Origin: an uncultured bacterium
Lineage (GTDB): Bacteria > Krumholzibacteriota > Krumholzibacteriia > LZORAL124-64-63
Reading direction: 5' to 3'
Length of the DNA: 64,000 nt
Assembly: GCA_963732385.1 (NCBI GenBank)
Contig: CAVSZB010000005.1
Coordinates: forward strand, 64,001 to 128,000
Of the stretch, positions 2,330-25,768 are shown in pieces. Each line of letters opens with the position of its first letter. Position 1 is the first letter of the stretch. The notes beneath the pieces were generated by a model that had not been told where the DNA came from, made no database searches, and worked only from the letters and a program-made list of their open reading frames with translations. A program made the position numbers and the translations under genes.

Positions 2330-2650
2330 ATGCCACCCATGGGCCGTTTAGGCGACAAGTCGCAGGCTCCGGTCGATGTGCACGGGTGCCCGGCCTGTCC
2401 GCATCCGGTGATCGGGCCGGCCATCGTCGGGTCGCCGAACGTCATGGTGAACGGGATGCCGGCGCTGCGGGTCGGGGACAAGGGGATCCATGCCGTCTGC
2501 TGCGGGCCGAACACCTGGACCGCGACCGCCGGCAGCGCCACGGTCATGATCAACAACCTGCCGGCGCATCGGATGGGTGACCAGGACCAGCATTGCGGCG
2601 GGCCCGGGACCCTCATCGAGGGCAGTCCGGACGTGATCGTCGGGGGCTGA
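2330..2650 (+). CDS. PAAR domain spike-tip protein
   Basis: Repeats PMGRLGD, PALRVGD, PAHRMGD; His/Cys metal ligands (HGCPACPH, HAVCC, HCGG); ends GSPDVIVGG; AAGGA upstream. Confidence 0.9.
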   Translation: MPPMGRLGDKSQAPVDVHGCPACPHPVIGPAIVGSPNVMVNGMPALRVGDKGIHAVCCGPNTWTATAGSATVMINNLPAHRMGDQDQHCGGPGTLIEGSPDVIVGG

Positions 2651-2662
2651 GACGGGGGGGCC

Positions 2663-3493: not shown

Positions 3494-3518
3494 GCGACCG
3501 GCGGAGGGTCGCAGCGAC

Positions 3519-4643
3519 ATGAAGATCGTCAACGAGACGCCGTTCATCGCCGAGGCGCTGCCGTTTGTCTGGCCGGACGGACGGGCCGCGCTGACGATCA
3601 TCCTCAAGGGGACGTTCACGATCCGTCCGGATGAGCCGGCCGAGCCGGCGATCGAGCAGCTGCCGATCCTGTTCGCCGACGCGCCGCTCGACCCGGAGAA
3701 CCCGGCGCTGGGCGCCCGGTTCGAGGCCGACGTCGTCCCGTTCAAGCCGCGCGCCGACATCGTGCTGGTGGGCAAGGCGCACGCGCCGCCGCGCAAGCTG
3801 GCGCGGGCGCTCGACGCGGCGCTGCGCGTGGGCAAGGTGAAGAAGGTCGTGCGGGTGATCGGCGACCGCCACTGGACCTGCGGCGGACGCCTGCTGCCGG
3901 CCGCGTTCTCGGCGGCGGAGCCGTTCAAGAGCATGGACCTGGTCTACGCGCGCGCCTTCGGTGGCATCGACCAGAAGGGGGGCGGCTACTGCCGCTACAA
4001 CCCCATCGGCCGCGGCTACATGGCCAAGAAGAGCAAGAGCGCGGTCGACGGCACGCCGCTGCCGAACGTGGAAGACCCGCGCCACCTGATCAGGAAGTGG
4101 GACAGCCGTCCGCGCCCCGCCGGTTTCGGCTTCACCGGCCGCGGCTGGCTGCCCCGCCTGCGCTACCTCGGCACCTACGACGAACGGTGGCGCAAGGAGC
4201 GGGCGCCGGCGCCGCCGGAGGACTTCCGCTTCGAGGCGTACAACGGCGCGCATCCCGACCTGCAGGTGAAGGAATACCTGCGCGGCGACGAGGACGTGGA
4301 GCTGGTCCACCTCACGCCGGAGCCGCGCCTGCGCTTTTTGCTGCCGGCGGTGACGCCGGTCTGCGCGGTGCTGCGTCACGGCGCGGCGGTCGATCCGGTG
4401 CTCGCGCGAAAAGACGACGAGAAGGTCGACGAACCGCCGCCGCCCATCCCGCGCGACGGCGAAGAGCAGGTCGTCGACGAGCCGACGCCGGGCTCGTCGG
4501 CCGGCGAGCGGGTCGCGCTGAATCTCGACACGCTCGTGTTCGACCCCGAAGAGATGCGTTTCTATCAGGTCTGGCGGGGCGTCTTCCCGCTGGCCGACCC
4601 TGCGGCGCGCGAAGTGGCGGAGATCGGCGTCTGGCTGGCGTGA
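3519..4643 (+). CDS. DUF2169 family T6SS accessory/adaptor protein
   Basis: N.TPF, IILKGTF, DVVPFKPRADIVLVGKAHAP, YARAFGG, NPIGRG, PAGFG, GTYDERW, LDTLVFD...VWR; GGAGG upstream. Confidence 0.9.
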   Translation: MKIVNETPFIAEALPFVWPDGRAALTIILKGTFTIRPDEPAEPAIEQLPILFADAPLDPENPALGARFEADVVPFKPRADIVLVGKAHAPPRKLARALDAALRVGKVKKVVRVIGDRHWTCGGRLLPAAFSAAEPFKSMDLVYARAFGGIDQKGGGYCRYNPIGRGYMAKKSKSAVDGTPLPNVEDPRHLIRKWDSRPRPAGFGFTGRGWLPRLRYLGTYDERWRKERAPAPPEDFRFEAYNGAHPDLQVKEYLRGDEDVELVHLTPEPRLRFLLPAVTPVCAVLRHGAAVDPVLARKDDEKVDEPPPPIPRDGEEQVVDEPTPGSSAGERVALNLDTLVFDPEEMRFYQVWRGVFPLADPAAREVAEIGVWLA

Positions 4644-4692: not shown

Positions 4693-7600
4693 ATGGCGAA
4701 CGAGGTCCACCTCACCGGGCAGAACGTCCTCGACCCGCCCCCCCGGGACCGCTGGTTCGTCGACTACCTGCCGCTGTGCGGCGGCGACGAACTCACCTAC
4801 TACGTCGACGGCGAGAGCTATGCCACCGACCTGCACGCCGCCCTCACCGGGGCCGCGCAGGAGATCTGCCTGACCGGCCTGCACTTCAGCGGCCACTTCC
4901 ACCTCAAGCGGCCGGGCGGCTGCGATCCCCTGAAGCAGGACGATCCCGACACGCTGCAGGAGATCCTGGCGGCCCGCAGCAAGGCCGGCTGCGAGATCTA
5001 TCTGCTGGTGAACCAGTTCTGGCCGGACGAAGGGAAGCTCGCCGCCAACTACTGGCGCGCCTACCGGGATCTCGACAAGCTGCTCTGGAAGATGCCCAGC
5101 GCGATCCGCGGCACGATCATGGCCTCGGGCGGGATTCCCGACTACCTGGAGCGGACGTTCGCCTTCTTCAAGTACCTCAAAGACCACGGCAACGCGGCGA
5201 AGATCCACTGCTACACCGACATCCACCAGGGCTACATCTTCCACAGCAACCACCAGAAGACGATCATCGTCGACCGCAAAACCGCCTTCTGGGGCGGCAT
5301 CGACCTGACCGACATCGACGGCGACCGTTGGGACGCCGCCGCCCATACGCCGGGCAACAAGCTGCGCAACTTCGACAAGCCCGAGCGCAACTGGCACGAC
5401 CTGCAGATGCGGGCCGTCAAGCCGCAGGGCGCCAAAGTCAGCGCCGTCGACTACGTCTACGCCAACTTCCTGGCGCGCTACAACCACGGCTACCTCTACA
5501 CGCCGTGGCGCAACGGGCAGGGCGTGCTCGAGGCGAAGCAGGAGAGCGGCTTCCCCAGGCTGTCGCCGCCCGGCGGCAAGACCGCGCAAGACTACGTGCC
5601 GAAGAAGCATTGGTACTACCCGCGGCAGCGCGAGCGCTACCAGAAGCAGAACGTGCTGGCGTGGCCGCTCGTCCAGGTGGTCCGCTCCATGCCGGCGGGC
5701 GCCGGCGGCAACTACGCCCGCAACCAGCATCCGCTCTGGAACGAGCTGCGGGTCGCGGTGCAGCCCGACCCGGATTTCCCGCCGCAGTACGTCAACCCCG
5801 CGTTCGAGCACTCCGCGCGCGACGCCTACCTCAAGGGGATCGCCGCCGCCGAGAAGTTCATCTACCTCGAGAACCAGTGGGTGGCCGACGACAGGATCTG
5901 GGCCGCGCTGTTCGCCGCCGCCGAGAAGCATGGCGCCGAGGCCGACTTCCGGCTGCTCGTCGTCCTGCCCAAGAAGTTCCTGGCCGCGGCCGGCTTCGGC
6001 AGCGAGCAGACGATCGACCTCAACCCGTACGTGGAGAAGCTCGCCCGCATCTTCAAGGCCAAGGGGCGGCCGGAGAACTTCGGCCTGTTCAGCATTTTGC
6101 AGCCGGCGGCCCACCAGGACCCGGTGCGCGATCAGACGCAGGTGCCGGAGTGCGTCTGGGACTACATGTACGTGCACTCCAAGCTGCTGATCGTGGACGA
6201 CTGCTGGGCGCTGCTCGGCTCGGCCAACGCCGGCGGCATCTCGCTGACCGGCCTGGGCACGACGAGCGAGCCCGACACGGAGCTGTCGGCCATCGTGCTC
6301 GACGAACGGGACGACGGCTCGCTCGTCAAACAGCTGCGCAAGAAGCTCTGGGCCGAGCACCTCGGGGTGGCCGAAGGGAACGTGGCCGACTACAAGACCG
6401 GCGCCGACCTGTTCCACAAGCAGGCGAAGGAGCAGGCGTTCAACACGACGAGCGCCAGGCGCGCGCACTACAACCTGCTCTACTACCCCTCCTCCCCCAA
6501 GGCCGCCGCCGCGCCCAACCAGGGGGTGTGGCGCCACCTCAAGTGGGCGCAGATCCAGCACCAGGTGAAGGCGCGCGTGGCCGACCCCGACGCCATCCAC
6601 CAGACCTACTACAACCTGAGCGGCCCGCTCACGGCCGTGCACATGCTGCTCGAGCGCGATCCGTCGCGGTACGAGAAGCTGGTGGCCAATCTCTACAAGA
6701 CCGGCGTCGACAAGGCGTGCGACGTGCGCCTGCAAATGCCCAACCCCCACCTGCACGACGTGCCGGTCCTGGTGCGGCCGCAGGAGCTGGTCGAGTTCGC
6801 CGTCGAATCCGAGCACCCGATCCTCGAGGTCGACTGGATGGTCGGCGGCGCGCTCACCGACAGCGCCAACTGGGTGCTCGACTACCAGGGCTCCGTGTCC
6901 GAGACCACGGCCACGGTCTGCTCCAACGGCGACATGGTGCGGCACCTCAAGAAGACCATCCCCTGCCAGGGCGGCGTCACCCACCTGAGCTGCGAGAGCT
7001 ACGGCGAGCTGAAGGAGGCGCAGAAGGCGAGCCTGCTGCTGGGCACCGGCGCGCCGACGAAGCCGCACACGGTGTTCGGCGCGGTCAAGATCGGCACGGC
7101 GCTGCTGCTGCAGCGCGACGACGCGGCGGTCGAGCGCGACAAGGGCGTGGCCAACCGCGACCTGGGCGACCCGAAGTACTGGATCAGCCGCGTGACCGAC
7201 AACCCGTGGCTGCAGCTCAGGCGCGACCGCGCCTACCCGCTCTACCCCGGCGTGCTGACCCCGTACGACGTGAAGCACATCCTGGGCGACCGGATGTACG
7301 TGCGCCTGCTCCAGCCGCTCGAGTTCAAGTACGACGGCGACAAGATCACCCACGTGCGGATGAGCTTCTGGACCTGGGGCCACCGCTCCACGCTCGAGGT
7401 GCCGGCCGCGCTGTTCGCCAAGCAGGTCTACGGCTTCTTCATCGGCTACTACACCAACGGCGCGCGCGCGCGGGCCGAAGAGAAGTTCCGGCTGCGCGCC
7501 GACAGGGTGAAGCTCAAGGCCGGCTGGCAGCGCGACTACGTGCACGACGACTGCGACGGCAGCAAGCTGACCGTGACCTGCGTCAGCGGCTCGCTGCGGG

Positions 7601-7782
7601 TGGAGCTGGCGCGGGCCGTCTGGTCGACGTGGGAGGTCGTGCGGACCGTCACCGTCGGCGCGGGGCAGTCGGTCCCGCTGGAGATCGGCGAGGCCTCGAA
7701 GGTCAACGACCAGGACGACCGGGCCAGGATCACGGCCCTGGCGGATGCGGAATACTCGCTCGACATGAAGAGCTGGACCTAG
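4693..7782 (+). CDS. Phospholipase D superfamily protein with long C-terminal extension; candidate T6SS effector (Tle5/PldA-like)
   Basis: Two HKD motifs (HQKTIIVD...GGIDL and HSKLLIVDD...GSAN) plus FIYLENQ; no signal peptide; lies in the T6SS operon. Confidence 0.85.
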   Translation: MANEVHLTGQNVLDPPPRDRWFVDYLPLCGGDELTYYVDGESYATDLHAALTGAAQEICLTGLHFSGHFHLKRPGGCDPLKQDDPDTLQEILAARSKAGCEIYLLVNQFWPDEGKLAANYWRAYRDLDKLLWKMPSAIRGTIMASGGIPDYLERTFAFFKYLKDHGNAAKIHCYTDIHQGYIFHSNHQKTIIVDRKTAFWGGIDLTDIDGDRWDAAAHTPGNKLRNFDKPERNWHDLQMRAVKPQGAKVSAVDYVYANFLARYNHGYLYTPWRNGQGVLEAKQESGFPRLSPPGGKTAQDYVPKKHWYYPRQRERYQKQNVLAWPLVQVVRSMPAGAGGNYARNQHPLWNELRVAVQPDPDFPPQYVNPAFEHSARDAYLKGIAAAEKFIYLENQWVADDRIWAALFAAAEKHGAEADFRLLVVLPKKFLAAAGFGSEQTIDLNPYVEKLARIFKAKGRPENFGLFSILQPAAHQDPVRDQTQVPECVWDYMYVHSKLLIVDDCWALLGSANAGGISLTGLGTTSEPDTELSAIVLDERDDGSLVKQLRKKLWAEHLGVAEGNVADYKTGADLFHKQAKEQAFNTTSARRAHYNLLYYPSSPKAAAAPNQGVWRHLKWAQIQHQVKARVADPDAIHQTYYNLSGPLTAVHMLLERDPSRYEKLVANLYKTGVDKACDVRLQMPNPHLHDVPVLVRPQELVEFAVESEHPILEVDWMVGGALTDSANWVLDYQGSVSETTATVCSNGDMVRHLKKTIPCQGGVTHLSCESYGELKEAQKASLLLGTGAPTKPHTVFGAVKIGTALLLQRDDAAVERDKGVANRDLGDPKYWISRVTDNPWLQLRRDRAYPLYPGVLTPYDVKHILGDRMYVRLLQPLEFKYDGDKITHVRMSFWTWGHRSTLEVPAALFAKQVYGFFIGYYTNGARARAEEKFRLRADRVKLKAGWQRDYVHDDCDGSKLTVTCVSGSLRVELARAVWSTWEVVRTVTVGAGQSVPLEIGEASKVNDQDDRARITALADAEYSLDMKSWT

Positions 7783-7792
7783 GCGGCGGACA

Positions 7793-8404
7793 ATGGCACG
7801 CATCGAAATCGATCAGGGCGACTGCATCTCCAGTCTCGCGGCACGGCACGGGGTGCCGTGGGAGGCCATCTGGGACCATCCGGACAACGCCGACCTCAAG
7901 TCGCGGCGCGGGGATCCCAACGCCCTGCTGCCGGGCGACGTCGTGATCGTGCCCGATCCGCAGCTGAAGCAGGAATCGGGCGGCTCCGACACCCGGCATC
8001 GCTTCCGGCGCAAGGGGGCCGCTCCGCTGCTGCGGGTGCGCCTGCTCAAGGGGGGCGAGGCGTGGGCGAACGAGAAGTTCCGCGCCGTGATCGACGGGGC
8101 CTGGCAGGAGGGGACGACCGGCCCGGACGGGATGGCCGAGCTCAAGGTGCCGCCGGCCGCGCAAGGCGGCGCCATCCACATCGGCCCGGCCGACCGGCAG
8201 GACATCTACCACTTCCGGCTCGGGCACCTCGACCCGCTCGACACCGACTCGGGCGTCCGCCAGCGGCTGGCCTGCCTCGGCTACGCCGTGGGCGAGGAAG
8301 CGGCCGGCGCGATCCGGGCCTTCCAGGCGGCCGAGGGGCTGACCGAGTCGGGCCAGGCCGACGGCGCCATGCAGGCCAGACTCAAGGAGCGTTACGGGCG
8401 ATGA
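7793..8404 (+). CDS. LysM-like + beta-sandwich + peptidoglycan-binding domain protein (paralog 1)
   Basis: QGDCISSLAARHG...IWDHPDN...LLPGDVVIVPD; C-terminal GVRQRLACLGY...AIRAFQAAEGLTESG. Confidence 0.8.
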   Translation: MARIEIDQGDCISSLAARHGVPWEAIWDHPDNADLKSRRGDPNALLPGDVVIVPDPQLKQESGGSDTRHRFRRKGAAPLLRVRLLKGGEAWANEKFRAVIDGAWQEGTTGPDGMAELKVPPAAQGGAIHIGPADRQDIYHFRLGHLDPLDTDSGVRQRLACLGYAVGEEAAGAIRAFQAAEGLTESGQADGAMQARLKERYGR

Positions 8405-8913
8405 ACGACCTGCCGCTCGGCAAGACGGTGCCGAAAGGGAAGGCGCACGGCGCGCTCGACGCACCGGTGATCGAAGTGTTCTTCCAGAAGTCGCCGGGCC
8501 GGGGCCTGGCACCCGACCAGGGCATCGCCGACCTTGAATACGAGGTCCGCATCGGCGGCAAGACAACGCAGACCGGCAAGACCGGCAAGGACGGGCTGAT
8601 CAAGGTGACGGCCACGGGCCCGGAGATCACGCTCGACCTGCGCGCGGGGGGCAGGACCGTCGCGAGCTACAAGCTGACCTGGACCGACGACCCGCTGGAG
8701 GCGGCCGCCACCCTGGAGGGACGGCAGCGGCGCCTGCGGCTGCTCGGCTACCAGATCGGGCACGCCGGAGCCGACGGGAGCGGCGTGGACGGCGTCACCG
8801 GCGGGGCGACCGAGCGCTCGATCCTCGATTTCCAGGTCGACCACGGGCTCGCCGCGGACGCGGCCGTCGGGAACAACACGCAGAAGCGCCTGGTGAAGGA
8901 AGCGGGGGCCTGA
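8401..8913 (+). CDS. Beta-sandwich + peptidoglycan-binding domain protein lacking LysM (paralog 2)
   Basis: ATGA overlap with the previous stop; GKTGKDGLIKV; GRQRRLRLLGY...VDGVTG..TERSILDFQVDHGL. Confidence 0.75.
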   Translation: MNDLPLGKTVPKGKAHGALDAPVIEVFFQKSPGRGLAPDQGIADLEYEVRIGGKTTQTGKTGKDGLIKVTATGPEITLDLRAGGRTVASYKLTWTDDPLEAAATLEGRQRRLRLLGYQIGHAGADGSGVDGVTGGATERSILDFQVDHGLAADAAVGNNTQKRLVKEAGA

Positions 8914-8917
8914 AGCG

Positions 8918-10060
8918 ATGGACACGATCTCCGTCAGGGTCTTCCGGAAGCTGCAGGTCGTGGCGCCGGTGCGCTTCGCGCGCGCGGCCACCGGCAACCC
9001 GCGGCGGGACCGCCCCGATCCCGACGACCGCGGCTTCGCCATGGGCCACCGGCCGGGATCGTGGCAGAAGTCCGACGCGCGCGGCCCGATGCTCGGCCTG
9101 ACCGCCGGCGACGAGGTCACGCTGAAGGTCCTGCGCGAGGACATCAGCGCCGACGCCCCCATCCACATCACCAGCAGCGAGCCGGGCGTGGTGACCGTCA
9201 CCTCCCCTGTCGCGGGCACCCCCGTCGGGGCCGACGGCGAGTTCACGATCAAGGCGGCCGACAAGCCGGCCAACGCGCCGGCCAAGATCCAGGCGCGGCT
9301 CGGTTCCGCGACCGGGCCGGTGCTCGGCGAGCTGGAGCCGCACGTCTTCGCGCTGCGCTGGGTGCGGGTGCTCGCCCACCTGGTGACGATCGACGGCACG
9401 GCGACCACCCGCACCGCGGATTCGCTCGTGGCGCACTTCCGGCAGGTGAACGACATCTGGCGCCCGTGCGGGGTGCAGTTCATCTACGTGAAGGCCGCGA
9501 CCGTCACCGAGCGGATCACCGGCACGCGGTACCGGCGCCGGGACGGCACCATGGCCGCCCTGCCGGCACCGCTCGGCCCGGGCGGCAGCTACGCCGCCGC
9601 CGGCACGGTCACCACGAACCTCGGCGCCTCGCACTGGGAGGAATTCTCCACCCTGCTGCAGATCTACCCGGCGGCCAACGCGGTGAACGTCTACTTCGTC
9701 GGCGCGGCGCCCGAGTGGAACGGCCTGACGTACGATCACGACATCCCGCGGCCCAACGGCTACGGCATCGCGATCGCCGACGCGGCCTCCGCCACGGACA
9801 CGGCGCACGAGCTCGGGCACTTCCTGAACCTCGACCGCCACTCGGACGAGAACGCCACGGGCGCGATCGTCCGTCGCGACATGTGGAACATCCGGCGTCT
9901 CATGTACAGCGTCTGGCCCCCGGCGACCCCGGCGCACAGGCACGACGTCGGCTACGGTCCCAACCGCTACGGGGCGGTGATCTCCCTGAAAGACCTGCCG
10001 CGTGAGGCCAGCGACGGCGAGTGCCAGCGGGCGCGCAGTCGGGCCGCCAACCCCTACTGA
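8918..10060 (+). CDS. Metzincin-like zinc metalloprotease with N-terminal Ig-like region; candidate T6SS effector
   Basis: AHELGHFLNLDRH zinc motif, Met-turn-like RLMY, VNDIWRPCGVQF and AVNVYFV as in M43/reprolysin-like proteins; no signal peptide. Confidence 0.7.
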   Translation: MDTISVRVFRKLQVVAPVRFARAATGNPRRDRPDPDDRGFAMGHRPGSWQKSDARGPMLGLTAGDEVTLKVLREDISADAPIHITSSEPGVVTVTSPVAGTPVGADGEFTIKAADKPANAPAKIQARLGSATGPVLGELEPHVFALRWVRVLAHLVTIDGTATTRTADSLVAHFRQVNDIWRPCGVQFIYVKAATVTERITGTRYRRRDGTMAALPAPLGPGGSYAAAGTVTTNLGASHWEEFSTLLQIYPAANAVNVYFVGAAPEWNGLTYDHDIPRPNGYGIAIADAASATDTAHELGHFLNLDRHSDENATGAIVRRDMWNIRRLMYSVWPPATPAHRHDVGYGPNRYGAVISLKDLPREASDGECQRARSRAANPY

Positions 10061-10110
10061 GCGGCGGAGAGGGCGCGCGGCGCCGGGCCGCGCGCAGACG
10101 GTGGAAACGG

Positions 10111-11022
10111 ATGCAGAAACGCTTGCGAAGCGGTGAACTGGCGGTCGCGGCCCTGGCGCTGCTGGTCCTCTCCTGCGGGGGGAACCGCGATCACGCGGAT
10201 CGGCGCGACACGAAAGGCGACGCGGCGACGTCGGCAAGCCCGAAGGGAACAGCCATGCAACAGGCACAGATCATCGAGCGCATCCGGCAGGGGGACGGCT
10301 CCGTCATCGACGAGGTCGCCCCGCTCGGCCCCGGCATCACGCGGGACCTCATCCCCCTGACAAGCGACGCCGACCCCGAGGTGCGCGAACTGGCCCTCTA
10401 CTGCCTCAACGAGGCGGGCGGCCCCGAGGCGCCGGCCGTGTTCGCCGCCGCGCTGCGCGACACGGTGGACACCGTCCGCTACCGGGCCTGCCTCTTCCTG
10501 CACCGCCACCACACCCCGTCGCAGGGCCCCGAACTGCTGCGGCTGCTGCGCGACGAGCCCGATCCGTACGTGCGCGGCGAGCTGGCGCTGATCCTCGCGG
10601 AGATGGGCGACCGGGAGGCCACGCCGCTGCTGCGGGCGCGCCTGCCCCACGAGCCCGACCCGGAAGCGCGCGACAAGCACCGGCTGGCCCTGGCCCGTCT
10701 GGAGGACGGCCAGGAGCGTCGCGACATCCACGCGGCCCTCGCCGACGCCAGCGTGGAGGTCCGTTACCGGGCGCTGCGGGACTTCGCCTACCTGGGCGAC
10801 CGGACGCAGGCGTCGCGCCTGCTGCCGCTGCTCGACGACGAGCGGCCGGCCGAGAACGTGGCGCCCGGAGGCCACGCCCGTTTTGTCCGCCTGTGCGACG
10901 TCACGGTGCGCACGCTCGACGCGCTGCTCGCGCACCCGTTCCCGTTCCCGGTGGAGTTCACGAAGCAGTACTCGCCGGAGGAGATCCGGCAGGCGAAGGA
11001 AGTGCTGGCCACGCCCCGCTGA
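10111..11022 (+). CDS. HEAT-repeat lipoprotein; candidate immunity protein
   Basis: Signal peptide with lipobox VLSC; repeated D.DP.VR..A...L units. Confidence 0.7.
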   Translation: MQKRLRSGELAVAALALLVLSCGGNRDHADRRDTKGDAATSASPKGTAMQQAQIIERIRQGDGSVIDEVAPLGPGITRDLIPLTSDADPEVRELALYCLNEAGGPEAPAVFAAALRDTVDTVRYRACLFLHRHHTPSQGPELLRLLRDEPDPYVRGELALILAEMGDREATPLLRARLPHEPDPEARDKHRLALARLEDGQERRDIHAALADASVEVRYRALRDFAYLGDRTQASRLLPLLDDERPAENVAPGGHARFVRLCDVTVRTLDALLAHPFPFPVEFTKQYSPEEIRQAKEVLATPR

Positions 11023-11043
11023 GCCGCGCGGCGCGCGGCCGCC

Positions 11044-11784
11044 TCAGCAGCCGTGCAGCTCGACGAGCTTGTCGCGGACGGCCTGGTCGATCTCGCCGCT
11101 GGCCTCGAGCCCGTTGCGCTCCTGGAACTCCCTCAGGGCGGCCCGCAGTTCCGGTGTCATCTCGTCGCTCCGGCCGCAGCGATAGCCGAGGTTCTCGAGG
11201 CGCTTGCACACGCCGGCGATCTGGTCGACCGGGTCCATGTCCCCCAGCCTCAGCGCGAAGACCTCCTGCCGGCTCGTGCCGGGCCGCACGACCAGCCGCC
11301 CCCGGCGCGCGCCGGGCGGGATGCGGCATTCGATGCGGCCGTCGCCGTCGGTGGTGCCGTCGGTGAGGATCCCGTCGACCTCCAGCACGTACGGCACGTT
11401 GGCGCGGGGCGACGGCGCGGCCGGGGCGGACGCGGCGGCGCCGGTTCCGCCTGACGCGGCCGCCGCGGGGTCCCTGAGCTGGAAGCGGAGCATGCCGGTC
11501 TCGCCGCGCCGCCTGAAGCGGTGCAGGCTGCCGGCCGGGCCCGTCTCCTGTTTCGGTCGCGGCTCCGGTATCGTGATCCGGTCGCCCGCCAGCAGGACGT
11601 GCGGGTTCCCGCGCACCCGCTTCAGCTCGGCGTTCTCCGGCAGGTCCCACAGGGTCCGCCAGAAGAAGCCGTGGCTCGCGGCGATGCTGTCGAGGCAGTC
11701 GCCCGCCTCGACGACGTAGTCCCCCTGCCCCACCGGGCCGGACGGGGGCGGTGAAGCGGCGCCGGGCGCGGAATTGCCGGTCAT
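11044..11784 (-). CDS. LysM-like + beta-sandwich + peptidoglycan-binding domain protein (paralog 3)
   Basis: YVVEAGDCLDSIAASHG...LWDLPEN...LLAGDRITIP; GTTDGDG; GVCKRLENLGY...ALREFQERNGLEASG. Confidence 0.8.
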   Translation of the reverse strand: MTGNSAPGAASPPPSGPVGQGDYVVEAGDCLDSIAASHGFFWRTLWDLPENAELKRVRGNPHVLLAGDRITIPEPRPKQETGPAGSLHRFRRRGETGMLRFQLRDPAAAASGGTGAAASAPAAPSPRANVPYVLEVDGILTDGTTDGDGRIECRIPPGARRGRLVVRPGTSRQEVFALRLGDMDPVDQIAGVCKRLENLGYRCGRSDEMTPELRAALREFQERNGLEASGEIDQAVRDKLVELHGC

Positions 11785-11794
11785 CGACGGCTCC

Positions 11795-13141
11795 TCAGAA
11801 GTCGTACATCACATCGGGCTCGGGCGGCGCGATGGAGGCCCGGATCGTCAGCCGGGTCAGGAACGGGCTGTGCGTGTGGCCGATCACGTAGACGGCGAAG
11901 TTAGGATTGGCGACGTAGGCCAGCGCGGCGGTGGTCAGGTAGTAGTCGCGCCGGCTCGGATCCCACTGGCGTATGCTCGGGGTCGTGAACACGCGGTTCG
12001 TGATCGACTGGCCGCTGACGGCCCCGTCGCGGTTGGCGCTGTCGCAGCGGTGGCCGTGCTCGATGTACACGCCATCCGCGCGGTACTCGCGCCGGCGCGC
12101 CGGCACGCCGGGCGGCACGTGCGCGGCCAGGTAGCAGTCGTGGTTCCCCCACAGCCACGACTTGTGGCCGACCGCGAGGGAGTGCAGCCCCGTGATGGCC
12201 TCGGGGTTCACCGCCGCCGTCCGGCGCATCCAGTAGTCGATGAACTCGACCGCCCCGAGGACCACCTCGCCGCCCCGGGCGCGCAGGTCCTGCAGCCGCA
12301 CCTCGTGGGCGTCGCGCTCCTGGAAGAACCGGTCGAGGCCGATCCACAGGTCGTACATGTCACCGGCCTGGACGAAGTGGATGCGGTCGCGCACGCCGGA
12401 GGCGCCGAGCAGCCGGGCGAAGAGCGCCAGGTCCGCCCCCGCGCCGCCGAAGATGTCCCCGGCAAGGTAGCGGTCGTACCAGGTCAGGACGCTGCCGGTG
12501 CGGTTCGGGTCGAAATCGAAGCGCCCCATCCGGTACTCCGGCTCGACCAGTTCCTGCCAGGCCACGAACTGGCCGCCCCGTTCGCCCCAGTGCTCCTGCG
12601 TGGCGGGGCGGCAGTCGACGAGCGGCAGGTGCAGGTCGCCCAGGATGACATGGACCTGGTCCCAGCTCACGGGGGCCCGGGACGGCGACCAGACGCGCTT
12701 GACGAGGCGGACGGAGCTGTGCGGCCCGCAGAGGGCCGCGATCACGTCGTTCATGGGACGGGCATTGACGGCCACGGTCGGCGGCGCGCCGCCGGCGCGG
12801 CTGCGGAATTCGCAGAGCGCGACCCACTGTCCCCAGACGAGCCCGAAGCTCCGCTGGGGGTTGGACCCGTCGCCCCAGCGGCCGACATCCATGAACGCCA
12901 GCACCGGCGGCGAGGTGATGAGGGTGTTGACGACCTGCGCGTCGGTGCGGCCCCGCGCCACGCACACCTCGCCCTGGTAGGTCAGCTCGGTCCAGACCGT
13001 GGCGATCACGCCCTGCCACGTGTCGGGCCAGTCTCCGACCGGCGCGTCGCACCGGGAGAGGTGGCCCGTCTCGGTGAACGTCAACTCGGCCGTGACGTCG
13101 TCCGGAATGGTCTCGCCGTAGCCATTGGGAATGTCAGGCAT
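11795..13141 (-). CDS. Calcineurin-like metallophosphoesterase (LpxH-like motif spacing) with unknown N-terminal domain; candidate effector
   Basis: Motifs GDLH, GDMYDLWIG, GNHD, HGH, GHTH in canonical order. Confidence 0.7.
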   Translation of the reverse strand: MPDIPNGYGETIPDDVTAELTFTETGHLSRCDAPVGDWPDTWQGVIATVWTELTYQGEVCVARGRTDAQVVNTLITSPPVLAFMDVGRWGDGSNPQRSFGLVWGQWVALCEFRSRAGGAPPTVAVNARPMNDVIAALCGPHSSVRLVKRVWSPSRAPVSWDQVHVILGDLHLPLVDCRPATQEHWGERGGQFVAWQELVEPEYRMGRFDFDPNRTGSVLTWYDRYLAGDIFGGAGADLALFARLLGASGVRDRIHFVQAGDMYDLWIGLDRFFQERDAHEVRLQDLRARGGEVVLGAVEFIDYWMRRTAAVNPEAITGLHSLAVGHKSWLWGNHDCYLAAHVPPGVPARRREYRADGVYIEHGHRCDSANRDGAVSGQSITNRVFTTPSIRQWDPSRRDYYLTTAALAYVANPNFAVYVIGHTHSPFLTRLTIRASIAPPEPDVMYDF

Positions 13142-13175
13142 GGGCCCTTCCTGCCACCGGCGGCGATCGTCCGCC

Positions 13176-13841
13176 TCAGGATCCGTGCTCCGCGGCCAAT
13201 TTGTCGCGCGTCTTCTGGTCCGGCTCGCCCGTCGCCTCGAGATCGCAGGCCCGCTGGAAGTCGCCGAGCGCGGCGCGCGTCGGCTCGTCCAGCGCGCCCG
13301 ACGCCGGGCACGGATAGCCCAGGTTCTCGAGCCGCTGCTGAACGCCGGTAAGCGACTCGACCGGATCGAGCCCGCTCAGCCGCAGCTCGAACGTCTGCTG
13401 GTCCTGCTCGTCCTGCCCCACGACCAGGGTGCCGCGCTGCGCGTTCGGCGGCACCGGCACCTCGACCACGCCATCGCCGTCGGTGCTGCCCTGACTCAGC
13501 CTGCCGTCGATGTTGAGCGTGTACGGCTCGTTCTTGCGCGGCTCGCCATCGCGCAGGATCCGCACGCGCAGCTTCGACGGCAGCCCCTTGCGGTGGAAGC
13601 GGTGCTTGCGGCCGTCGGCCCCGGGCTCCTGCTTCGGGCGCGGGTCGGGAACCTGCACGCGGTCGCCCGGCAGCAGCAGCGACGGGTCCTTGCGCTCCCG
13701 CTTGAGCTGCGCGTTGTCGGGGTGGTTCCAGAGGGTGTCGGGCAGGTAGCCGTGCGCCAGGGCGATGCTCTCGATGCACTCGCCCTGCTTCACGACGTAA
13801 TTCCCGCCGCCCACCGGTTTCGCCGTCGCGCCGTCGGCCAT
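13176..13841 (-). CDS. LysM-like + beta-sandwich + peptidoglycan-binding domain protein (paralog 4)
   Basis: YVVKQGECIESIALAHG...LWNHPDN...LLPGDRVQVPD; GSTDGDG; GVQQRLENLGY...ALGDFQ; ATG abuts the vgrG stop. Confidence 0.8.
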   Translation of the reverse strand: MADGATAKPVGGGNYVVKQGECIESIALAHGYLPDTLWNHPDNAQLKRERKDPSLLLPGDRVQVPDPRPKQEPGADGRKHRFHRKGLPSKLRVRILRDGEPRKNEPYTLNIDGRLSQGSTDGDGVVEVPVPPNAQRGTLVVGQDEQDQQTFELRLSGLDPVESLTGVQQRLENLGYPCPASGALDEPTRAALGDFQRACDLEATGEPDQKTRDKLAAEHGS

Positions 13842-16160
13842 CTAGGCCTTCTCCCAGGTGTCCTGGTCCAGGTCGGGGAAGGTGATCTGGCAGTTGCCCG
13901 GCTCGATCCCCTCCACCCGCGCGAGCCCCTTCTCGTCGAGCGTGCCCTCGGCCGTGGAGCCGTCGGGCAGCTCGATCCGGTAGCGCTCGCCCGGCACCGG
14001 CTGGTTGTCGTCATCCACCAGTTCGATCTCGATCCAGCTCGTCTTGCGCGCCTTCTCCTCGGACGTCTTGGGCGGCTTGTGCGGCGTGACCTGCGTCATG
14101 GCGCCGGCCACCGCGTCGCCCGCGACGACCGCCGCGATCGGCACCGCCGGCGGCACCAGGCCGAGCGCGCTGATGGCGTCGGCCGCGGAGCCGGGACCCG
14201 AGTTGATCTTGGTCATCCCGCCGTCGATGGTGACGACCGAGCCCTTCAGCGTCACGCCGGCCGGATCGATGACCACGCTGTTGCCGCCGCACTTCAGGGT
14301 GATCTTCGTCATCCCCTCCACGACGATGCCCATCGCCTTCAGGTGCAGGTTCTGCCCCACCTCGGCGAAATAGTTCGCGTTGTAGGCCTCGCTCACGTCG
14401 CCCTTGACCTTCAGCGAGCGGCTGCCGCCGATCTCGATCGCCTCCTTGCCGACGACCTTGCGGTGGCGGTCCTTGCCGATCTCCTCGACGTGGTCGGCGC
14501 CCACCTTCTCCTGGCGGTTGTTGTCGACCTGCTCGATCTGGTCCTTCTTGACGTACAGGTGACGGTCGTTGCCGATCCACTCGCGGGCGTCGTTGCCGAC
14601 GCGCAGATCCTCGTCCCGCTCGGCGCGCACGAACAGCTGCTCGGCGCCCTTCTTGTCCTCGAAGCGGATCTCGTTGAAACCGCCCCCGCCCTTGCTGGAC
14701 AGGCTCTTGAGGGCCGACATCGTGGCGTTGGCCGGCAGGTCGTACGGCGGCATGGCGGCGCTGTTGTAGACCCCGCCGGTGATGAGCGGGCGGTCCGGAT
14801 CCCCTTCCAGGAATTCGACCACCACCTCGTGTCCGATGCGCGGGATGAACAGCCCGCCCCACTGCTTGCCGGCCCACGGCTGGGCGACGCGGATCCAGCA
14901 CGAGCTGGTCTCGTCGGCCTGGCCCTGCCGGTCCCAGTGGAACTGCACCATCACGCGGCCGTGCTTGTCGACGTGGATCTCCTCCCCCTTGGGGCCGACC
15001 ACGAAGGCGGTCTGCGGCCCGGGCACGCGCGGCTTGGGCGTCAGGCGCGCCGGCCGGTACGGCACCGCGTGGGGCATGCAGACGAAGCGGTTCTCGTACT
15101 TGCTGGTCCAGCGATCGATGGCGCCGCCGCTCTCGAACACCGCCTCCTGGGTCAGCTCGTGCCGCACCTCCGTCAGCAGGTAGCTCTGCGCGAAGTCGGC
15201 GCGGGGATGCTCCGCCAGGTCGAAGCGGTGGCCCGGCAGGAAGGCGCGGCAGTCGCTCTCGCCCCGCACCTGGACGGCCAGCTGGTCGCCCTCCTGGCGG
15301 CGCAGCTTGAGCCGGGCCTCGCCGAGGTTGAGCTTGCCGGCCTGCTCGGACCCCAGCGTGGCGTAGGCGCCGGGGTAGTCGAAGATCTCCAGCCGCCGGT
15401 CGCCCCCCTCGGGCACGGTGCTGTTGGCCGAAACCAGCAGGCTCGTGCCGGGATCCAGGAAGTTGAAATCGCACAGGCTGTAGGCGCCGGGCTGCAGCGT
15501 GTGCTCGGCCGTCCAGGCCCGCACCGAGTCGGTGTTCTCGTGCCGGTCGGCCCCCGGGTCGAAGCTGGCGATCGGCTGGTCGGGACAGGGGGGATTGCGG
15601 CCCGGCGCGTCGGCCAGCACCAGCTTGTGCATCGACGGGCCGTGCTCGAAGAAGTAGAAGATCCCCTCCTCCTCGAGCAGCCGCGACACGAAGCTGAAGT
15701 CCGACTCGCGGTACTGGACGCAGTAGACCCACGGCTCGTAGGTCCCGTCGAGCCGCAGCTCGAAATCGTTGAGCTTGAGCCCGGTGAACACCTTCTTGAC
15801 GATGTCGGGCACGGTCTCATTCTGGAAGATGCGGCAGTCCGTGCGCCGCGTGAGCAGCCACGGCCACGGCACGAGCTCCGCGTGATAGACCGTCAGACGG
15901 CGGTCCGAACCGGCCTGCGCGAAGCGCGAGATCAGGCCATGGATGCGGCGCTTGCCGCCGTCGGCGAGCGCGATCTCGATCAGCGCCGGCTGGCCGATGA
16001 GGGCCTTGAAATCGATGGCGTCGTCCTCGGCCAGCAGCTCGAGCTGGAACTGGAACGGACGCGAAACGCCTTCCCAGCCCGTCAGCCGCCGCACCAGCAG
16101 CTTGTCCTCGCCCAGCGGCGTGCTGATGTTACAGATCCGGCCTTCCTGCTGGAAAAACAT
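13842..16160 (-). CDS. vgrG: T6SS spike protein VgrG with short C-terminal extension
   Basis: YCVQYRESDFSFVSRLLEEEGIFYFF, GPQTAFVVGP.GEEIH.DKHGRV.VQFHWDR, IPRIGHEVVVEFLEGDPDRP, NEIRFEDKKG. Confidence 0.97.
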   Translation of the reverse strand: MFFQQEGRICNISTPLGEDKLLVRRLTGWEGVSRPFQFQLELLAEDDAIDFKALIGQPALIEIALADGGKRRIHGLISRFAQAGSDRRLTVYHAELVPWPWLLTRRTDCRIFQNETVPDIVKKVFTGLKLNDFELRLDGTYEPWVYCVQYRESDFSFVSRLLEEEGIFYFFEHGPSMHKLVLADAPGRNPPCPDQPIASFDPGADRHENTDSVRAWTAEHTLQPGAYSLCDFNFLDPGTSLLVSANSTVPEGGDRRLEIFDYPGAYATLGSEQAGKLNLGEARLKLRRQEGDQLAVQVRGESDCRAFLPGHRFDLAEHPRADFAQSYLLTEVRHELTQEAVFESGGAIDRWTSKYENRFVCMPHAVPYRPARLTPKPRVPGPQTAFVVGPKGEEIHVDKHGRVMVQFHWDRQGQADETSSCWIRVAQPWAGKQWGGLFIPRIGHEVVVEFLEGDPDRPLITGGVYNSAAMPPYDLPANATMSALKSLSSKGGGGFNEIRFEDKKGAEQLFVRAERDEDLRVGNDAREWIGNDRHLYVKKDQIEQVDNNRQEKVGADHVEEIGKDRHRKVVGKEAIEIGGSRSLKVKGDVSEAYNANYFAEVGQNLHLKAMGIVVEGMTKITLKCGGNSVVIDPAGVTLKGSVVTIDGGMTKINSGPGSAADAISALGLVPPAVPIAAVVAGDAVAGAMTQVTPHKPPKTSEEKARKTSWIEIELVDDDNQPVPGERYRIELPDGSTAEGTLDEKGLARVEGIEPGNCQITFPDLDQDTWEKA

Positions 16161-16182: not shown

Positions 16183-18846
16183 TCAGGTCATCCGGTACTG
16201 GAACGTCCCCTGGTCCACGAGCACCTCGACGCGCGAGAACGGCTCGCTCGCCGCCATCCGCGTCAGAAACTCCACCGAGATCTGCGGCAACAGCGTCTGG
16301 GTGAGGATGTGATCGATGGCCCGGGCCCCGCTTTCCGCCTCGGTGCAGCGCGCGGCGATCGCCTCGAGCAGGTCGTCGCCATAGACGAAGTCGACCCGGT
16401 GGTTCTGCCGCACGCGGCGGGCGATCCGCCCGAGCTGCAGGCTGATGATGCGCCGCAGCGGCTCGCCCTGGATCGGATAGTACGGCACGACGACCATGCG
16501 TCCGAGCAGCGCGGCCGGGAACTGCCGCAGCAGCTCGGGGCGGATCGCGTCGGCCAGCCCTGCCGGCTCCGGGCAGGTCTCCGGGTCGGCGCACAGCTTC
16601 ATGATCGTATCCGAACCGACGTTGGAGGTGAGCAGGATCACGGTGTTCTTGAAGTCGATCTCCCGCCCCTGGCCGTCTTCGAGCATCCCCTTGTCGAACA
16701 CCTGGTAGAACAGCTCCATCACGTCGGGGTGGGCCTTCTCCACCTCGTCGAGCAGGACCACGGCGTACGGACGCCGACGCACCGCCTCGGTGAGCACGCC
16801 CCCCTCGCCGTAGCCGACGTAGCCGGGCGGCGCCCCCTTCAGGCTCGAAACCGTGTGCGCCTCCTGGTACTCCGACATGTTGATCGTGATCAGATTGCGC
16901 TCGCCGCCGTAGAGCGCCTCGGCCAGCGCCAGGGCGGTTTCGGTCTTGCCCACGCCGCTCGGACCGACGAGCAGGAAGACCCCCACCGGCCGCGACGGGT
17001 TGTCGAGGCCGGCGCGCGCGGTGCGGATCCGGCGCGCCACCGCCTCGAGGCCGTGGTCCTGGCCGATCACCCGCTCGCGCAGCCGGTCGCCGAGATTGAG
17101 CACGGTCTGGATCTCGTCGGCCACCATGCGGCCGGTCGGGATGCCGGTCCAGCCGGAGATCACCTCGGCGATGGTCTGGTCGCTGACCTCGCAGCCGACG
17201 AGCGGCTGCTCCCCCTGGAGCCTGGCGAGCTGGCCGCGCAGCTTGTCCAGCTCGGCGCGCAGCTTCTTCTGCTCGGCGGCCTTGAGCGGCTCGCTCCCCT
17301 CCTCCCCCTCCAGCCGGGTGCGGACGGCCACGAGCTTGTCCACCAGCTCCAGCTCCTGCTTCCAGCGCGTCTCCATCTCGGCCAGGCGCGTGGCGCTGTC
17401 GGCGCGGGCGGCGGCGATCTCGGCCAGCCGCTCCGCATGGTCGACGCCCAGGGCGCTCTCGCGCTGGAGGATGCGCGTCTCGGTGTCGAGCGCGTCGAGC
17501 CGCCGGTGGAGATCCTCCACCGGCGCCGGCGTGGCGCTGCGGCCGATGGCCACCCGCGCGCAGGCCGTGTCGAGCACGCTGACCGACTTGTCGGGCAGCT
17601 GGCGGGCCGGGATGTAGCGGTGCGACAGCTTCACGGAGGCGGACACCGCGCCGTCCAAAATGCGCACCCCGTGGTGCTTCTCGAGCTTCGGCGAGAGACC
17701 GCGCATCATCTCCACGGCGGAGCTTTCGGTCGGCTCGTCCACCTTGACCACCTGGAACCGCCGCGACAGCGCGGGGTCCTTCTCGAAATAGCGTTTGTAC
17801 TCCGCCCAGGTGGTGGCGGCGATCGTGCGCAGCTCGCCGCGCGCGAGGGCCGGCTTGAGCAGGTTCGCGGCGTCATTCTGCCCCTCCTGGCCGCCGGCGC
17901 CGATCATGGTGTGCGCCTCGTCGATGAACAGGATGATCGGCCGCGGCGACGTTTTGACCTCGGAGATGACCTGCTTGAGCCGGTTCTCGAACTCGCCCTT
18001 GACCCCGGCCCCGGCCTGCAGCAGCCCGAGATCGAGCGTGCGCAGCGCCACGCCCTGCAGGATCGGCGGCACGTCGCCCGCCGCGATGCGCAGCGCGAAC
18101 CCCTCCACGACGGCCGTTTTGCCCACGCCGGCCTCGCCGGTCAAAATCGGGTTGTTCTGGCGGCGACGCGTGAGGATGTCGATGATCTGGCGGATCTCCG
18201 CGTCGCGCCCCAGGACCGGGTCGACGCGTCCGGCCTGCGCTTCGGCCGTGAGGTCGATCGTGAACTGGTCCAGGGCCGGCGTGCCGGCCCCGGCCACCGC
18301 GCCGGCGGCCCCGCCGGCCGCACCGGCGCCGCCGACCGGCGCGCCCGCGCCGAGCGCGAACACCTCGCGATCCTCGGGCGAGCCCGCCACGATCGCGGCG
18401 AACTCGTGCTCGAGCGTCTCGAGCTTGATGCGACGCAGGTCGGGCGAGGCGTCGAGCAGGCGGCGCTGCAGCTGCCGATCGCCGAGCGCCCCCAGCAGCA
18501 GGGCTCCCGAGCGCACCCGGGCGGTGCCGAGATTGATCGACGAAAGCACCCACCCCTCCCGCATCACGTCCTCCAGGCTCGGCGAGAGCTGGGGCCGGCC
18601 GCCATTGCCGGTCTTGTACTGGTCGAGCGACCGCTCGAGGTCGCGCAGGAAGCGGTCAGGCTCGATCTCGAACCGGCGCAGGATGCGGTCGAAATCGCCG
18701 CCGGTCCCCTCGCCCAGCTTCATGAACCAGTGCTCGAGCTCCACCTCGTAGTGGGTGCGTGAAAGACAGAGCCCCGCCGCGCCCTCCAGCCCGCGCCGGG
18801 CATTGTCCGTCAGCTTCCCGACCAGCGACTTCAGGTTCAGACTCAC
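16183..18846 (-). CDS. tssH: T6SS AAA+ ATPase ClpV/TssH
   Basis: N-terminal AAGLCLSRTHYEVELEH; Walker A motifs GEAGVGKT and GPSGVGKT; RRRQNNPIL. Confidence 0.97.
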   Translation of the reverse strand: MSLNLKSLVGKLTDNARRGLEGAAGLCLSRTHYEVELEHWFMKLGEGTGGDFDRILRRFEIEPDRFLRDLERSLDQYKTGNGGRPQLSPSLEDVMREGWVLSSINLGTARVRSGALLLGALGDRQLQRRLLDASPDLRRIKLETLEHEFAAIVAGSPEDREVFALGAGAPVGGAGAAGGAAGAVAGAGTPALDQFTIDLTAEAQAGRVDPVLGRDAEIRQIIDILTRRRQNNPILTGEAGVGKTAVVEGFALRIAAGDVPPILQGVALRTLDLGLLQAGAGVKGEFENRLKQVISEVKTSPRPIILFIDEAHTMIGAGGQEGQNDAANLLKPALARGELRTIAATTWAEYKRYFEKDPALSRRFQVVKVDEPTESSAVEMMRGLSPKLEKHHGVRILDGAVSASVKLSHRYIPARQLPDKSVSVLDTACARVAIGRSATPAPVEDLHRRLDALDTETRILQRESALGVDHAERLAEIAAARADSATRLAEMETRWKQELELVDKLVAVRTRLEGEEGSEPLKAAEQKKLRAELDKLRGQLARLQGEQPLVGCEVSDQTIAEVISGWTGIPTGRMVADEIQTVLNLGDRLRERVIGQDHGLEAVARRIRTARAGLDNPSRPVGVFLLVGPSGVGKTETALALAEALYGGERNLITINMSEYQEAHTVSSLKGAPPGYVGYGEGGVLTEAVRRRPYAVVLLDEVEKAHPDVMELFYQVFDKGMLEDGQGREIDFKNTVILLTSNVGSDTIMKLCADPETCPEPAGLADAIRPELLRQFPAALLGRMVVVPYYPIQGEPLRRIISLQLGRIARRVRQNHRVDFVYGDDLLEAIAARCTEAESGARAIDHILTQTLLPQISVEFLTRMAASEPFSRVEVLVDQGTFQYRMT

Positions 18847-18878
18847 GAATCCCCTCCTCGCATCCGGGATCGTTGCGC

Positions 18879-19934
18879 TCAGGCCACGGCGCTTGCCGGC
18901 GCCTGCGCGTCGATGAGGATTTCCGCCGACGCCTCCCGCGTCCGCGCCGACTGGAGCCAGGTGGACCAGCCGAGCCAGGGCGCGCCGTGCGCGTCGGCCA
19001 CGCCCAGGCGCAGGCCGGGCACCGCCTCGGGCCGCAGCACGAGCTGCAGGTCGAAATCGTGCTCCGCGCCGGCGCCCAGCCGCACCATCTCGACCAGCGG
19101 CCGGAAGGCCTGGCCGGTGGGCAGCAGCTCCTGGAACGCCGGCCAGTCGAGCGGGCCGAGGCGCAGCCGGAAGCGCGCCTGCGCCACCTGCACGCGGCCG
19201 CCGAGCGTCAGATCGCAGCCCAGCTGGTTCGCGTACCGGCCGAGCCGGCTGCGCTCCTCCTCACCGATGACATACCACTCGGGAACGAACTGCTCCACGG
19301 CGACCGGCACGCCGAAATAGCTCTCCAGCAGGTCCGCCAGCCCGACGGCGGTGACGCGACCGCGCCGGAACGCCGACGCCCGCGCCAGCAGGGCGCGCGC
19401 GTCGAACGGCAGCTCGTGCCCCGTGTCGGGCGCACCCAGACCGAGCAGCGAGAGCAGAGCGCGCTCGAACACGCCCGGCTTGTCGCTGTCATCCCGTTCG
19501 TAGGTGATCGGAAAGCGGTACTTGGCCCAGGCGCGGTAGAAGAGCGAGACCAGCCGATGGTTGAACAGGTCGAAGAAGTCGCGCAGCGCCGTGTCGCGCT
19601 CACGCAGCCGGGTCAGCAGCAGCTCCACGTACGGCGTCGGCAGGCTGCCGAAGCTGGCGGGGGTGGCGAGGCCCATGAAGGCGACCGTGAGCTGCGCCGG
19701 CCCCTCGCCGGTCGGAGCGGTCACGGACCTGACGTCGCTTGGCGGGAAGGCCAGCGAGACATCGGAGAGGAAGCGAACCGTCTCGCGACGCGGATCGTCC
19801 CCTTCGCCGACAGGCACGGCTGCCGACGCCCCGAGCTGCAGCAGGCGCACCGCCTGGAAGAACTCGAAGCGGTATCCGTGCGCGAACAGCAGTTCGCTCA
19901 GGTCAGCGTGACTTGTCCGGCGCGAGGCGGCCAC
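18879..19934 (-). CDS. tssG: T6SS baseplate subunit TssG
   Basis: FEFFQAVRLL, SLAFPPSDV, DFFDLFNHRLVSLFYRAWAKYR, LGWSTWL. Confidence 0.95.
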   Translation of the reverse strand: MAASRRTSHADLSELLFAHGYRFEFFQAVRLLQLGASAAVPVGEGDDPRRETVRFLSDVSLAFPPSDVRSVTAPTGEGPAQLTVAFMGLATPASFGSLPTPYVELLLTRLRERDTALRDFFDLFNHRLVSLFYRAWAKYRFPITYERDDSDKPGVFERALLSLLGLGAPDTGHELPFDARALLARASAFRRGRVTAVGLADLLESYFGVPVAVEQFVPEWYVIGEEERSRLGRYANQLGCDLTLGGRVQVAQARFRLRLGPLDWPAFQELLPTGQAFRPLVEMVRLGAGAEHDFDLQLVLRPEAVPGLRLGVADAHGAPWLGWSTWLQSARTREASAEILIDAQAPASAVA

Positions 19935-22278: not shown

Positions 22279-22306
22279 CGCCGTCCCCTTGCGCCGACAC
22301 CCGGCG

Positions 22307-23122: not shown

Positions 23123-23145
23123 CACCCACCGCCCCCTTGCCGGCC

Positions 23146-23634: not shown

Positions 23635-23724
23635 GACGTTACATCCTTTCGGCACGGCGGGCGCCCTCAGGACGCACCGCCCTCCTCCATCACGCCGTGG
23701 ACGACGGGCCCTGCCCGCCGCCCC

Positions 23725-25221: not shown

Positions 25222-25222
25222 G

Positions 25223-25753: not shown

Positions 25754-25768
25754 CTTGGTCCCTCCCTC

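Follow-up and report, generated by a model that had tools for sequence, protein, structure and literature searches.

A widespread family of LysM-like, transthyretin-like and PG_binding_1 proteins as a probable spike-to-cargo linker of type VI secretion systems

We analyzed a 64,000-nucleotide stretch of DNA (the window) from an uncultured bacterium of the Krumholzibacteriota (GenBank assembly GCA_963732385.1, contig CAVSZB010000005.1, positions 64,001 to 128,000 of the forward strand). Beside the gene for VgrG, the spike protein of a type VI secretion system (T6SS), the window holds four related genes, here called A to D, which are present where a first-pass annotation, made from the DNA letters alone, had placed them. 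The family genes and their neighbor, whose tail is transthyretin (TTR)-like, are as follows.

7793-8404, plus strand: A (203 aa), full family layout, first gene of a cassette in the order A, B, peptidase, HEAT
8401-8913, plus strand: B (170 aa), LysM-less, with a linker-like N-terminus, the centre and PG_binding_1 (profile comparison)
11044-11784, minus strand: C (246 aa), with an Ala/Pro insert, closing its operon
13176-13841, minus strand: D (221 aa), its start codon abutting the vgrG stop with zero gap
13842-16160, minus strand: VgrG (772 aa; TIGR03361, E 1e-191)
13845-14045, minus strand: acidic TTR-like tail of VgrG, residues 706 to 772 (profile matches to solved VgrG TTR regions)

The vgrG gene is single copy in the whole genome, and D starts directly after its stop codon, as had been noted. 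In D, a LysM-like region (residues ~13 to 66) is followed by a basic linker (67 to 88), a TTR-like centre (89 to 156) and a PG_binding_1 domain (157 to 221). A, C and D were 38 to 48% identical in pairs over ~200 aa, with no further such copies in the 3.8-Mb genome, and the linker residues H80, F82, G86 and P88 were almost invariant in the family. For PG_binding_1 (PF01471), B, C and D passed the Pfam cut-off, whereas A fell short of it (20.5 versus 23 bits). LysM (PF01476) reached 17.3 bits in A against a cut-off of 20.9, and C and D had no Pfam match to it; the relative P0136 scored 32.7 bits, and the profile of the family (82 sequences) matched solved LysM domains (E 5e-4 to 8e-3) and also the LysM domain in the tube initiator of a contractile tail (9G8S). 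The three-part layout first described for A, C and D was largely borne out, with an N-terminal part that is LysM-like. B scored only ~10 bits in pairwise comparison with A, C and D. A profile of 10 B-type proteins, on the other hand, matched the family in HHalign at 99.3% over 119 columns, and the N-terminus of B aligned with the family linker in a global profile comparison (87%). These profiles make B a genuine if remote relative of A, C and D that has no LysM, in keeping with its original description as having only the last two parts.

None of the four proteins has a hydrophobic N-terminus in a hydropathy check, which is not a signal-peptide predictor; this agrees with the annotation of all four as lacking a signal peptide. 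The combination of a signal or transmembrane segment with an OmpA-type domain that marks TagL and TagN was absent from A to D. No NCBIfam model names any of them, and Pfam gave no match in A to D to DUF4123, DUF2169 or DUF1795 (DUF2169 matches another gene of the window). Nor did Pfam or NCBIfam give a match to RIX, FIX, MIX, WHIX or PIX in A to D, the presence of those models in the libraries being unchecked. Searches of the ESM Atlas, none of them structure based, returned unnamed PG_binding_1/LysM clusters for the whole protein and no usable match for the centre alone. Two D-type alleles were 96 to 98% identical in LysM, 87 to 90% in the centre and only 38 to 43% in PG_binding_1. A metagenome scan for the D alleles, made to compare the PG_binding_1 swap with the cargo, found only 1 of 27 loci to be close, and a relative of D at 84% identity occurs in Candidatus Krumholzibacteriia.

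The first-pass annotation had aligned the central domain by eye with the VgrG C-terminus and proposed that the family docks on the spike through this common domain. In our comparison, a profile of the centre matched a profile of 31 VgrG-type tails in HHalign at 96.0%, over only 38 to 43 columns, with a score of 46 versus at most 19.4 in 30 column shuffles. The match was confined to the first ~45 of the 72 tail positions, and the conserved tail end F-P-x-L-D-x-x-A-W, whose terminal tryptophan is nearly invariant, had no counterpart in the family centre. A six-frame search of the genome with the centre profile ranked B and the VgrG tail next after A, C and D, at E values (0.06 to 0.09) that alone are non-significant; the second-best PDB match of the centre was 6H56 (E 0.022). 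The tail profile matched the TTR regions of the VgrG of enteroaggregative Escherichia coli (EAEC; 6SJL, E 2e-4) and of VgrG2b (6H56, E 1e-3), and Bap and Cna-B domains scored equal to or above these VgrG TTRs. The CarboxypepD_reg protein of the window, used as a control, matched neither profile, which says little, as Bap and Cna-B match the tail profile. The VgrG-type tail also occurs in other loci as a stand-alone gene or on PAAR, and in P0128 the centre and PG_binding_1 form the tail of VgrG itself. Judged from these profiles, the centre and the VgrG tail are probably both TTR-like, and the stretch that they have in common is the generic prealbumin/Cna-B motif, which is also found in surface Ig-like domains. 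The likeness seen by eye thus stood as a profile match, but only as a short and generic one that leaves out the aromatic tail end. The proposed docking through a common domain was not supported by this match, the common stretch being generic, and charge and precedent favor the basic strand (see below).

We then examined the distribution of the family. At E <=1e-30 it had 4116 representatives, part of them owing to PG_binding_1 repeats, and 56 loci came from Planctomycetota, Acidobacteriota, Myxococcota, Thermodesulfobacteriota, Nitrospirota and candidate phyla. Of the 301 Phycisphaerae genomes surveyed, TssF was present in 51 and the family in 26; 25 had both, and the remaining carrier had TssC. 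Both carriers found in 351 Acidobacteriota genomes had TssF, one of them being the seed genome. Full-length members were present in 8 of the 208 genomes of the window's phylum, 5 of which have TssF and 2 a Bacteroidota-type T6SS. The carrier genomes include kin and are not independent, and the nominal p value for the linkage was given no weight. With 25 of 26 Phycisphaerae carriers having TssF, the neighborhood survey called for by the first-pass annotation found linkage to T6SS rather than its absence. Copies per genome ranged from 0 to 9, with up to 9 alongside one TssF, and the family was missing from 26 of the 51 Phycisphaerae with TssF and, in the window's phylum, from most genomes with TssF. 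Because half or more of the T6SS-positive genomes are without it, the family is accessory to T6SS.

Two loci of the window's phylum, L123 (G029:C1:203001-223000) and L124 (G020:C45:46001-64736), have a Bacteroidota-type T6SS with TssC of PF17541, two TssD of PF17642 and a PASTA-fused TssG, and both hold family members adjoining or fused to PAAR-TTR. This T6SS subtype was described in a phylum other than the window's. An association of these two genomes with extracellular contractile injection systems was considered and rejected, as both have the Bacteroidota-type T6SS. The genome of Chondromyces apiculatus DSM 436 (G209) gave ~60 Phage_GPD (VgrG-like) matches.

Fusions were found on both sides of the family. 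In L091, VgrG, TTR and a family protein lie in a single 1107-aa frame; PAAR-TTR-family fusions were found in L036, L083, L089 and P0122 to P0124, some possibly the same records; and in P0125 and P0126 the tail TTR, read by eye, is joined directly to LysM. On the enzyme side, P0127 is a family-amidase fusion, and P0136 is a family protein followed by an amidase and a second centre/PG_binding_1. From their domain order, such fusions on both sides should be what is expected of a spike-cargo linker.

To describe gene order, genes were called with our own script in 67 loci and in the window itself; 7 of the loci, where the member was partial or miscalled, were dropped, leaving 60 with a full-length member. 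A tail-type TTR gene (VgrG, PAAR-TTR or stand-alone TTR) directly preceded 31 of 78 members, and 67 of 77 members had a co-oriented gene within 200 nt. Of these 67 next genes, 13 were family genes, and 50 were other genes with a length of 250 aa or more, which fell into 38 clusters. We ran Pfam on 56 downstream genes, leaving out one near-duplicate and moving one gene further along in two cases; the matches were to phospholipase D (PLD), metallophosphoesterase, amidohydrolase, PAD, Het-C, amidase and M43-like peptidase. No Pfam match was obtained for over half of the genes, and a few resemble housekeeping genes. A hydrophobic N-terminus was found in none of the 38 cargo clusters versus 53 of 264 control genes. 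Member-cargo pairs are repeated in arrays after vgrG in L051, L057, L066 and L085. The order of the pair is the linker gene and then the downstream cargo gene.

A second recurring cargo family follows a member in L045, L046, L048, L053, L060, L061, L072 and L089. Its proteins have 570 to 740 aa, one with a weak M43 peptidase match and two with a C-terminal LysM, and a conserved gene of ~280 to 300 aa comes next, with signal-like starts in several.

Within the window, the following genes lie beside or between A to D.

4693-7782, plus strand: PLD-family candidate effector, 1029 aa (Pfam)
8918-10060, plus strand: candidate cargo, 380 aa, HExxH zinc-peptidase-like motif in the sequence, no Pfam match
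10111-11022, plus strand: HEAT-repeat protein that starts with a lipoprotein-like signal, a candidate for immunity to the peptidase (Pfam, hydropathy)
11795-13141, minus strand: candidate cargo behind D, 448 aa, no Pfam match, motifs common to a homologue after a family gene in genome G104

The order A, B, peptidase, HEAT was kept in 11 of 68 stretches including the window, two pairs of which are near-copies. The lipoprotein-like start makes the HEAT gene the likely immunity gene, with the peptidase as the likely cargo of A and B. The peptidase-HEAT pair (8918-11022, plus strand) is itself an unnamed candidate effector-immunity pair conserved across several phyla. The 448-aa gene carries what we take to be metallophosphoesterase-like motifs. 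No obvious immunity gene lies behind this phosphoesterase-like gene (11795-13141) or behind the PLD gene (4693-7782).

Every candidate effector had been annotated as having a family gene beside it. This is so by adjacency, but PLD orthologues (70 to 92% identical) in 3 of 3 relatives have no A-type gene behind them, and C has no downstream co-oriented gene. PLD was therefore rejected as the partner of A. In G096 the PLD gene comes after PAAR and DUF2169, as in the window, and in G097 a 37% identical PLD paralogue does come after a member; the PLD of the window probably goes with the upstream PAAR/DUF2169 and not with A. In the G096 locus L029, vgrG, tssH, tssF, PLD and a second family gene seem frameshifted, while that family gene is intact in the matching metagenome contig L096; assembly errors or decay are possible.

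From the gene order, the co-occurrence with T6SS and the fusions in both directions, we conclude with a probability of about 0.72 that the family is a spike-to-cargo linker, a T6SS adaptor or co-effector that loads enzymes onto the needle. The adaptor/co-effector role proposed in the first-pass annotation is thus supported on these three counts. The family protein probably leaves with the spike, given its fusions to VgrG and PAAR. In 31 neighboring pairs the mean charge was -8.1 for the tail and +3.3 for the linker, the sole positive segment, and we favor the basic strand as the VgrG-tail contact because of this charge and published precedent. Docking would take place between the acidic TTR tail, whether of VgrG or of PAAR, and the conserved basic strand that separates LysM from the centre. 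The next member or the cargo would in turn sit on the centre, on the PG_binding_1 end or on both, so that chains such as VgrG-D-phosphoesterase and VgrG-A-B-peptidase could share one spike. We are much less sure of this contact map, both the tail-to-linker docking and the holding of the next partner by the centre/PG_binding_1, than of the linker role. LysM and PG_binding_1 may bind the target wall or act as protein-contact surfaces, and tethering to the wall would be compatible with these findings. Doubtful as a whole is a bolder version in which co-secreted linkers would be stackable, each capping the previous acidic TTR with its basic strand and offering its own TTR onward, so that a single VgrG would bear chains of linkers and unrelated enzymes, with LysM/PG_binding_1 clamping the assembly to the wall, in both T6SS types and marking dozens of unnamed effector families in little-studied phyla.

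Several observations weigh against the linker role. C (11044-11784) has no co-oriented downstream gene and no cargo behind it. The orthologues of D (68 to 89% identical) always abut vgrG, yet the gene that comes after them was a different one in 3 of 3 relatives, and D therefore tracks the spike and is not cargo-specific. Twenty of 60 loci had no T6SS or tail gene in the examined DNA, as did 13 of 45 among loci of at least 15 kb, and G104, a 95% complete genome of the window's phylum, has two member-cargo pairs (L032, L033) and no VgrG, TssF or TssC match. Both enzyme fusions are amidases, which is also compatible with plain cell-wall binding. A likeness between cargo N-termini and the linker was weak (p 0.03; motif in 4 of 38 versus 4 of 264), was chosen post hoc and is not used as support. 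A tree test of co-evolution with cargo, which counts neither for nor against the linker role, gave 17 label changes versus 27.1 after shuffling, with three cross-phylum groups, a result inflated by near-copies and contradicted by the D clade.

The cargo of the two G104 pairs is Het-C-like and phosphoesterase-like; a remnant, an unassembled system or a T6SS-independent use is possible.

It was also considered that the family may be a cell-wall anchor that rides the spike, its LysM and PG_binding_1 pinning the spike-cargo complex to target peptidoglycan, with linking secondary or absent. The presence of PG_binding_1 in all four proteins and of LysM-like N-termini, the amidase nature of both enzyme fusions, and the lipoprotein-type immunity candidate of the peptidase cassette, which implies a periplasmic target, speak for such an anchor. 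However, many cargo types are not wall enzymes, LysM is also structural in contractile tails (the tail tube initiator 9G8S) and acted as a protein linker in PMC10673891, and an anchor for each spike would not explain why a genome can have up to 9 copies, every one ahead of a gene of its own. We regard this alternative as unlikely.

Less likely still is a cytoplasmic chaperone that would stabilize or mask the cargo until it is loaded and would itself stay in the cell, as for DUF4123, DUF2169 and DUF1795, a variant of the linker role that differs in the fate of the protein. The gene position upstream of cargo and the lack of a signal peptide would suit it, as would the swap of PG_binding_1 between alleles otherwise 87 to 98% identical, as for a partner-specific lobe; but the swap does not follow cargo type in the few cases seen, and the VgrG and PAAR fusions would be secreted.

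Very unlikely, and equally so, are two further proposals. Immunity proteins for the adjoining effectors would account for C, which comes after the phosphoesterase-like gene that has no other immunity candidate, but not for members upstream of unrelated enzymes, for a peptidase cassette that already has a signal-bearing HEAT gene behind the enzyme, or for the spike-protein fusions. A TagL/TagN-like baseplate or envelope anchor of the machine would supply the OmpA-type wall-binding domain that the TssL of this genome, DotU alone, is without, but A to D have no signal or transmembrane segment, copy number runs from 0 to 9, and the family is missing from the many TssF-positive genomes noted above (26 of 51 in Phycisphaerae, most in the window's phylum). 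Baseplate or wall anchors and immunity proteins had been named as alternatives from the start, and the spike fusions, the lack of a signal or transmembrane segment and the patchy copy number disfavor them.

Two further groups of T6SS genes lie in the window.

2330-4643, plus strand: PAAR, a 276-aa gene without assignment, and a DUF2169 adaptor (Pfam)
16183-26857, minus strand: T6SS core TssA, TssB, TssC, Hcp, TagJ/ImpE, TssE, TssF, TssG and TssH (Pfam)

A missing T6SS membrane complex was considered and rejected, as TssJ, TssK, TssL and TssM, together with FHA proteins, a kinase and a phosphatase, are on the same contig ~13 to 29 kb before the window. The 276-aa gene (2663-3493, plus strand), between PAAR and DUF2169, has no Pfam match; its homologues precede DUF2169 in L029 and L054, and it is possibly a further spike accessory. 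A 1207-aa trypsin/fibronectin III/FlgD-Ig protein (28642-32265, minus strand) adjoins the T6SS cluster. Within the TssJKLM cluster there is an FHA-FHA-lytic transglycosylase (SLT) fusion (L005:4144-5964, minus strand; G000:C5 near 49-51 kb), and genes with GmrSD, RelA/SpoT and AbiEii domains are near it, between the two T6SS clusters.

The means by which a single T6SS spike takes up a range of unrelated effectors has been studied almost only in Proteobacteria. In Planctomycetota, Acidobacteriota, Myxococcota, Desulfobacterota and candidate phyla, the family offers a loading route that can be tested, and it occurs with two T6SS types. It could also be used as a marker for effector discovery: the 60 loci gave 38 clusters of downstream proteins, the majority with no Pfam match. 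The concept of TTR and LysM linkers is already published, which limits the surprise.

Full-text searches, whose coverage leaves out most subscription papers, found no paper describing the LysM-TTR-PG_binding_1 family. The comparisons that follow rest on the accessible parts of the papers cited. A 2026 review of T6SS accessory factors (PMC13584744) does not there use the terms LysM, TTR or co-effector. Six domain families that occur alone or fused in vgrG loci were catalogued by Wang et al. 2023 (PMC10673891), LysM and PG_binding_1 being two of them; in the same paper, co-immunoprecipitation showed that a LysM protein of Ketobacter bridges VgrG and a toxin. According to the reviewers of that paper, PG_binding_1 was not tested there. 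Like our family, Kalk_10460 of Ketobacter alkanivorans and the LysM and PG_binding_1 domains lie between vgrG and effector and are stand-alone or fused to VgrG or toxin. Unlike it, LysM and PG_binding_1 are treated there as separate families, PG_binding_1 from gammaproteobacteria only. A LysM-TTR-PGBD protein is not described in those parts, and Kalk_10460, which we compared by description only, may or may not be a member. Within the literature searched, the view that this is not a characterized T6SS module holds for the full architecture but not for LysM and PG_binding_1, which had already been reported as linker domains in vgrG loci (PMC10673891).

The window's VgrG tail matches by sequence the TTR internal adaptors of EAEC VgrG1 (6SJL) and Pseudomonas aeruginosa VgrG2b (6H56). 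RIX-TTR secreted adaptors (Kanarek et al. 2023, PMC10435454), modeled as binding the N-terminal strand of the cargo, share with the family a non-toxic TTR protein encoded first, before the cargo, whose module is fused to PAAR or VgrG elsewhere; in contrast, the TTR of the family is flanked by LysM-like and PG_binding_1 domains, in other phyla and in tandem members, with no RIX evident. In Acinetobacter (PMC11796386), the Ig-like and LysM region of Tae17 binds VgrG17, the strand between Ig-like and LysM is modeled on the acidic TTR, and a tryptophan is needed for delivery. Unlike in Tae17, the delivery region of the family is a separate non-catalytic gene in the order LysM-strand-beta domain with a PG_binding_1 end. 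The MIX co-effector VP1388 (Dar et al., PMC8728615) likewise has a delivery domain that is stand-alone before the effector or fused, whereas the family has no MIX match in Pfam or NCBIfam. DUF4123, DUF2169 and DUF1795 adaptors (PMC11582642, PMC10673891) resemble the family in lying upstream of diverse cargo with one end conserved and the other more variable; they are described as unsecreted, in contrast to the spike-fused family, which has no sequence match to them. Taken together, the family is real, widespread and unnamed, and it is most likely a variant within the already known T6SS adaptors and co-effectors.

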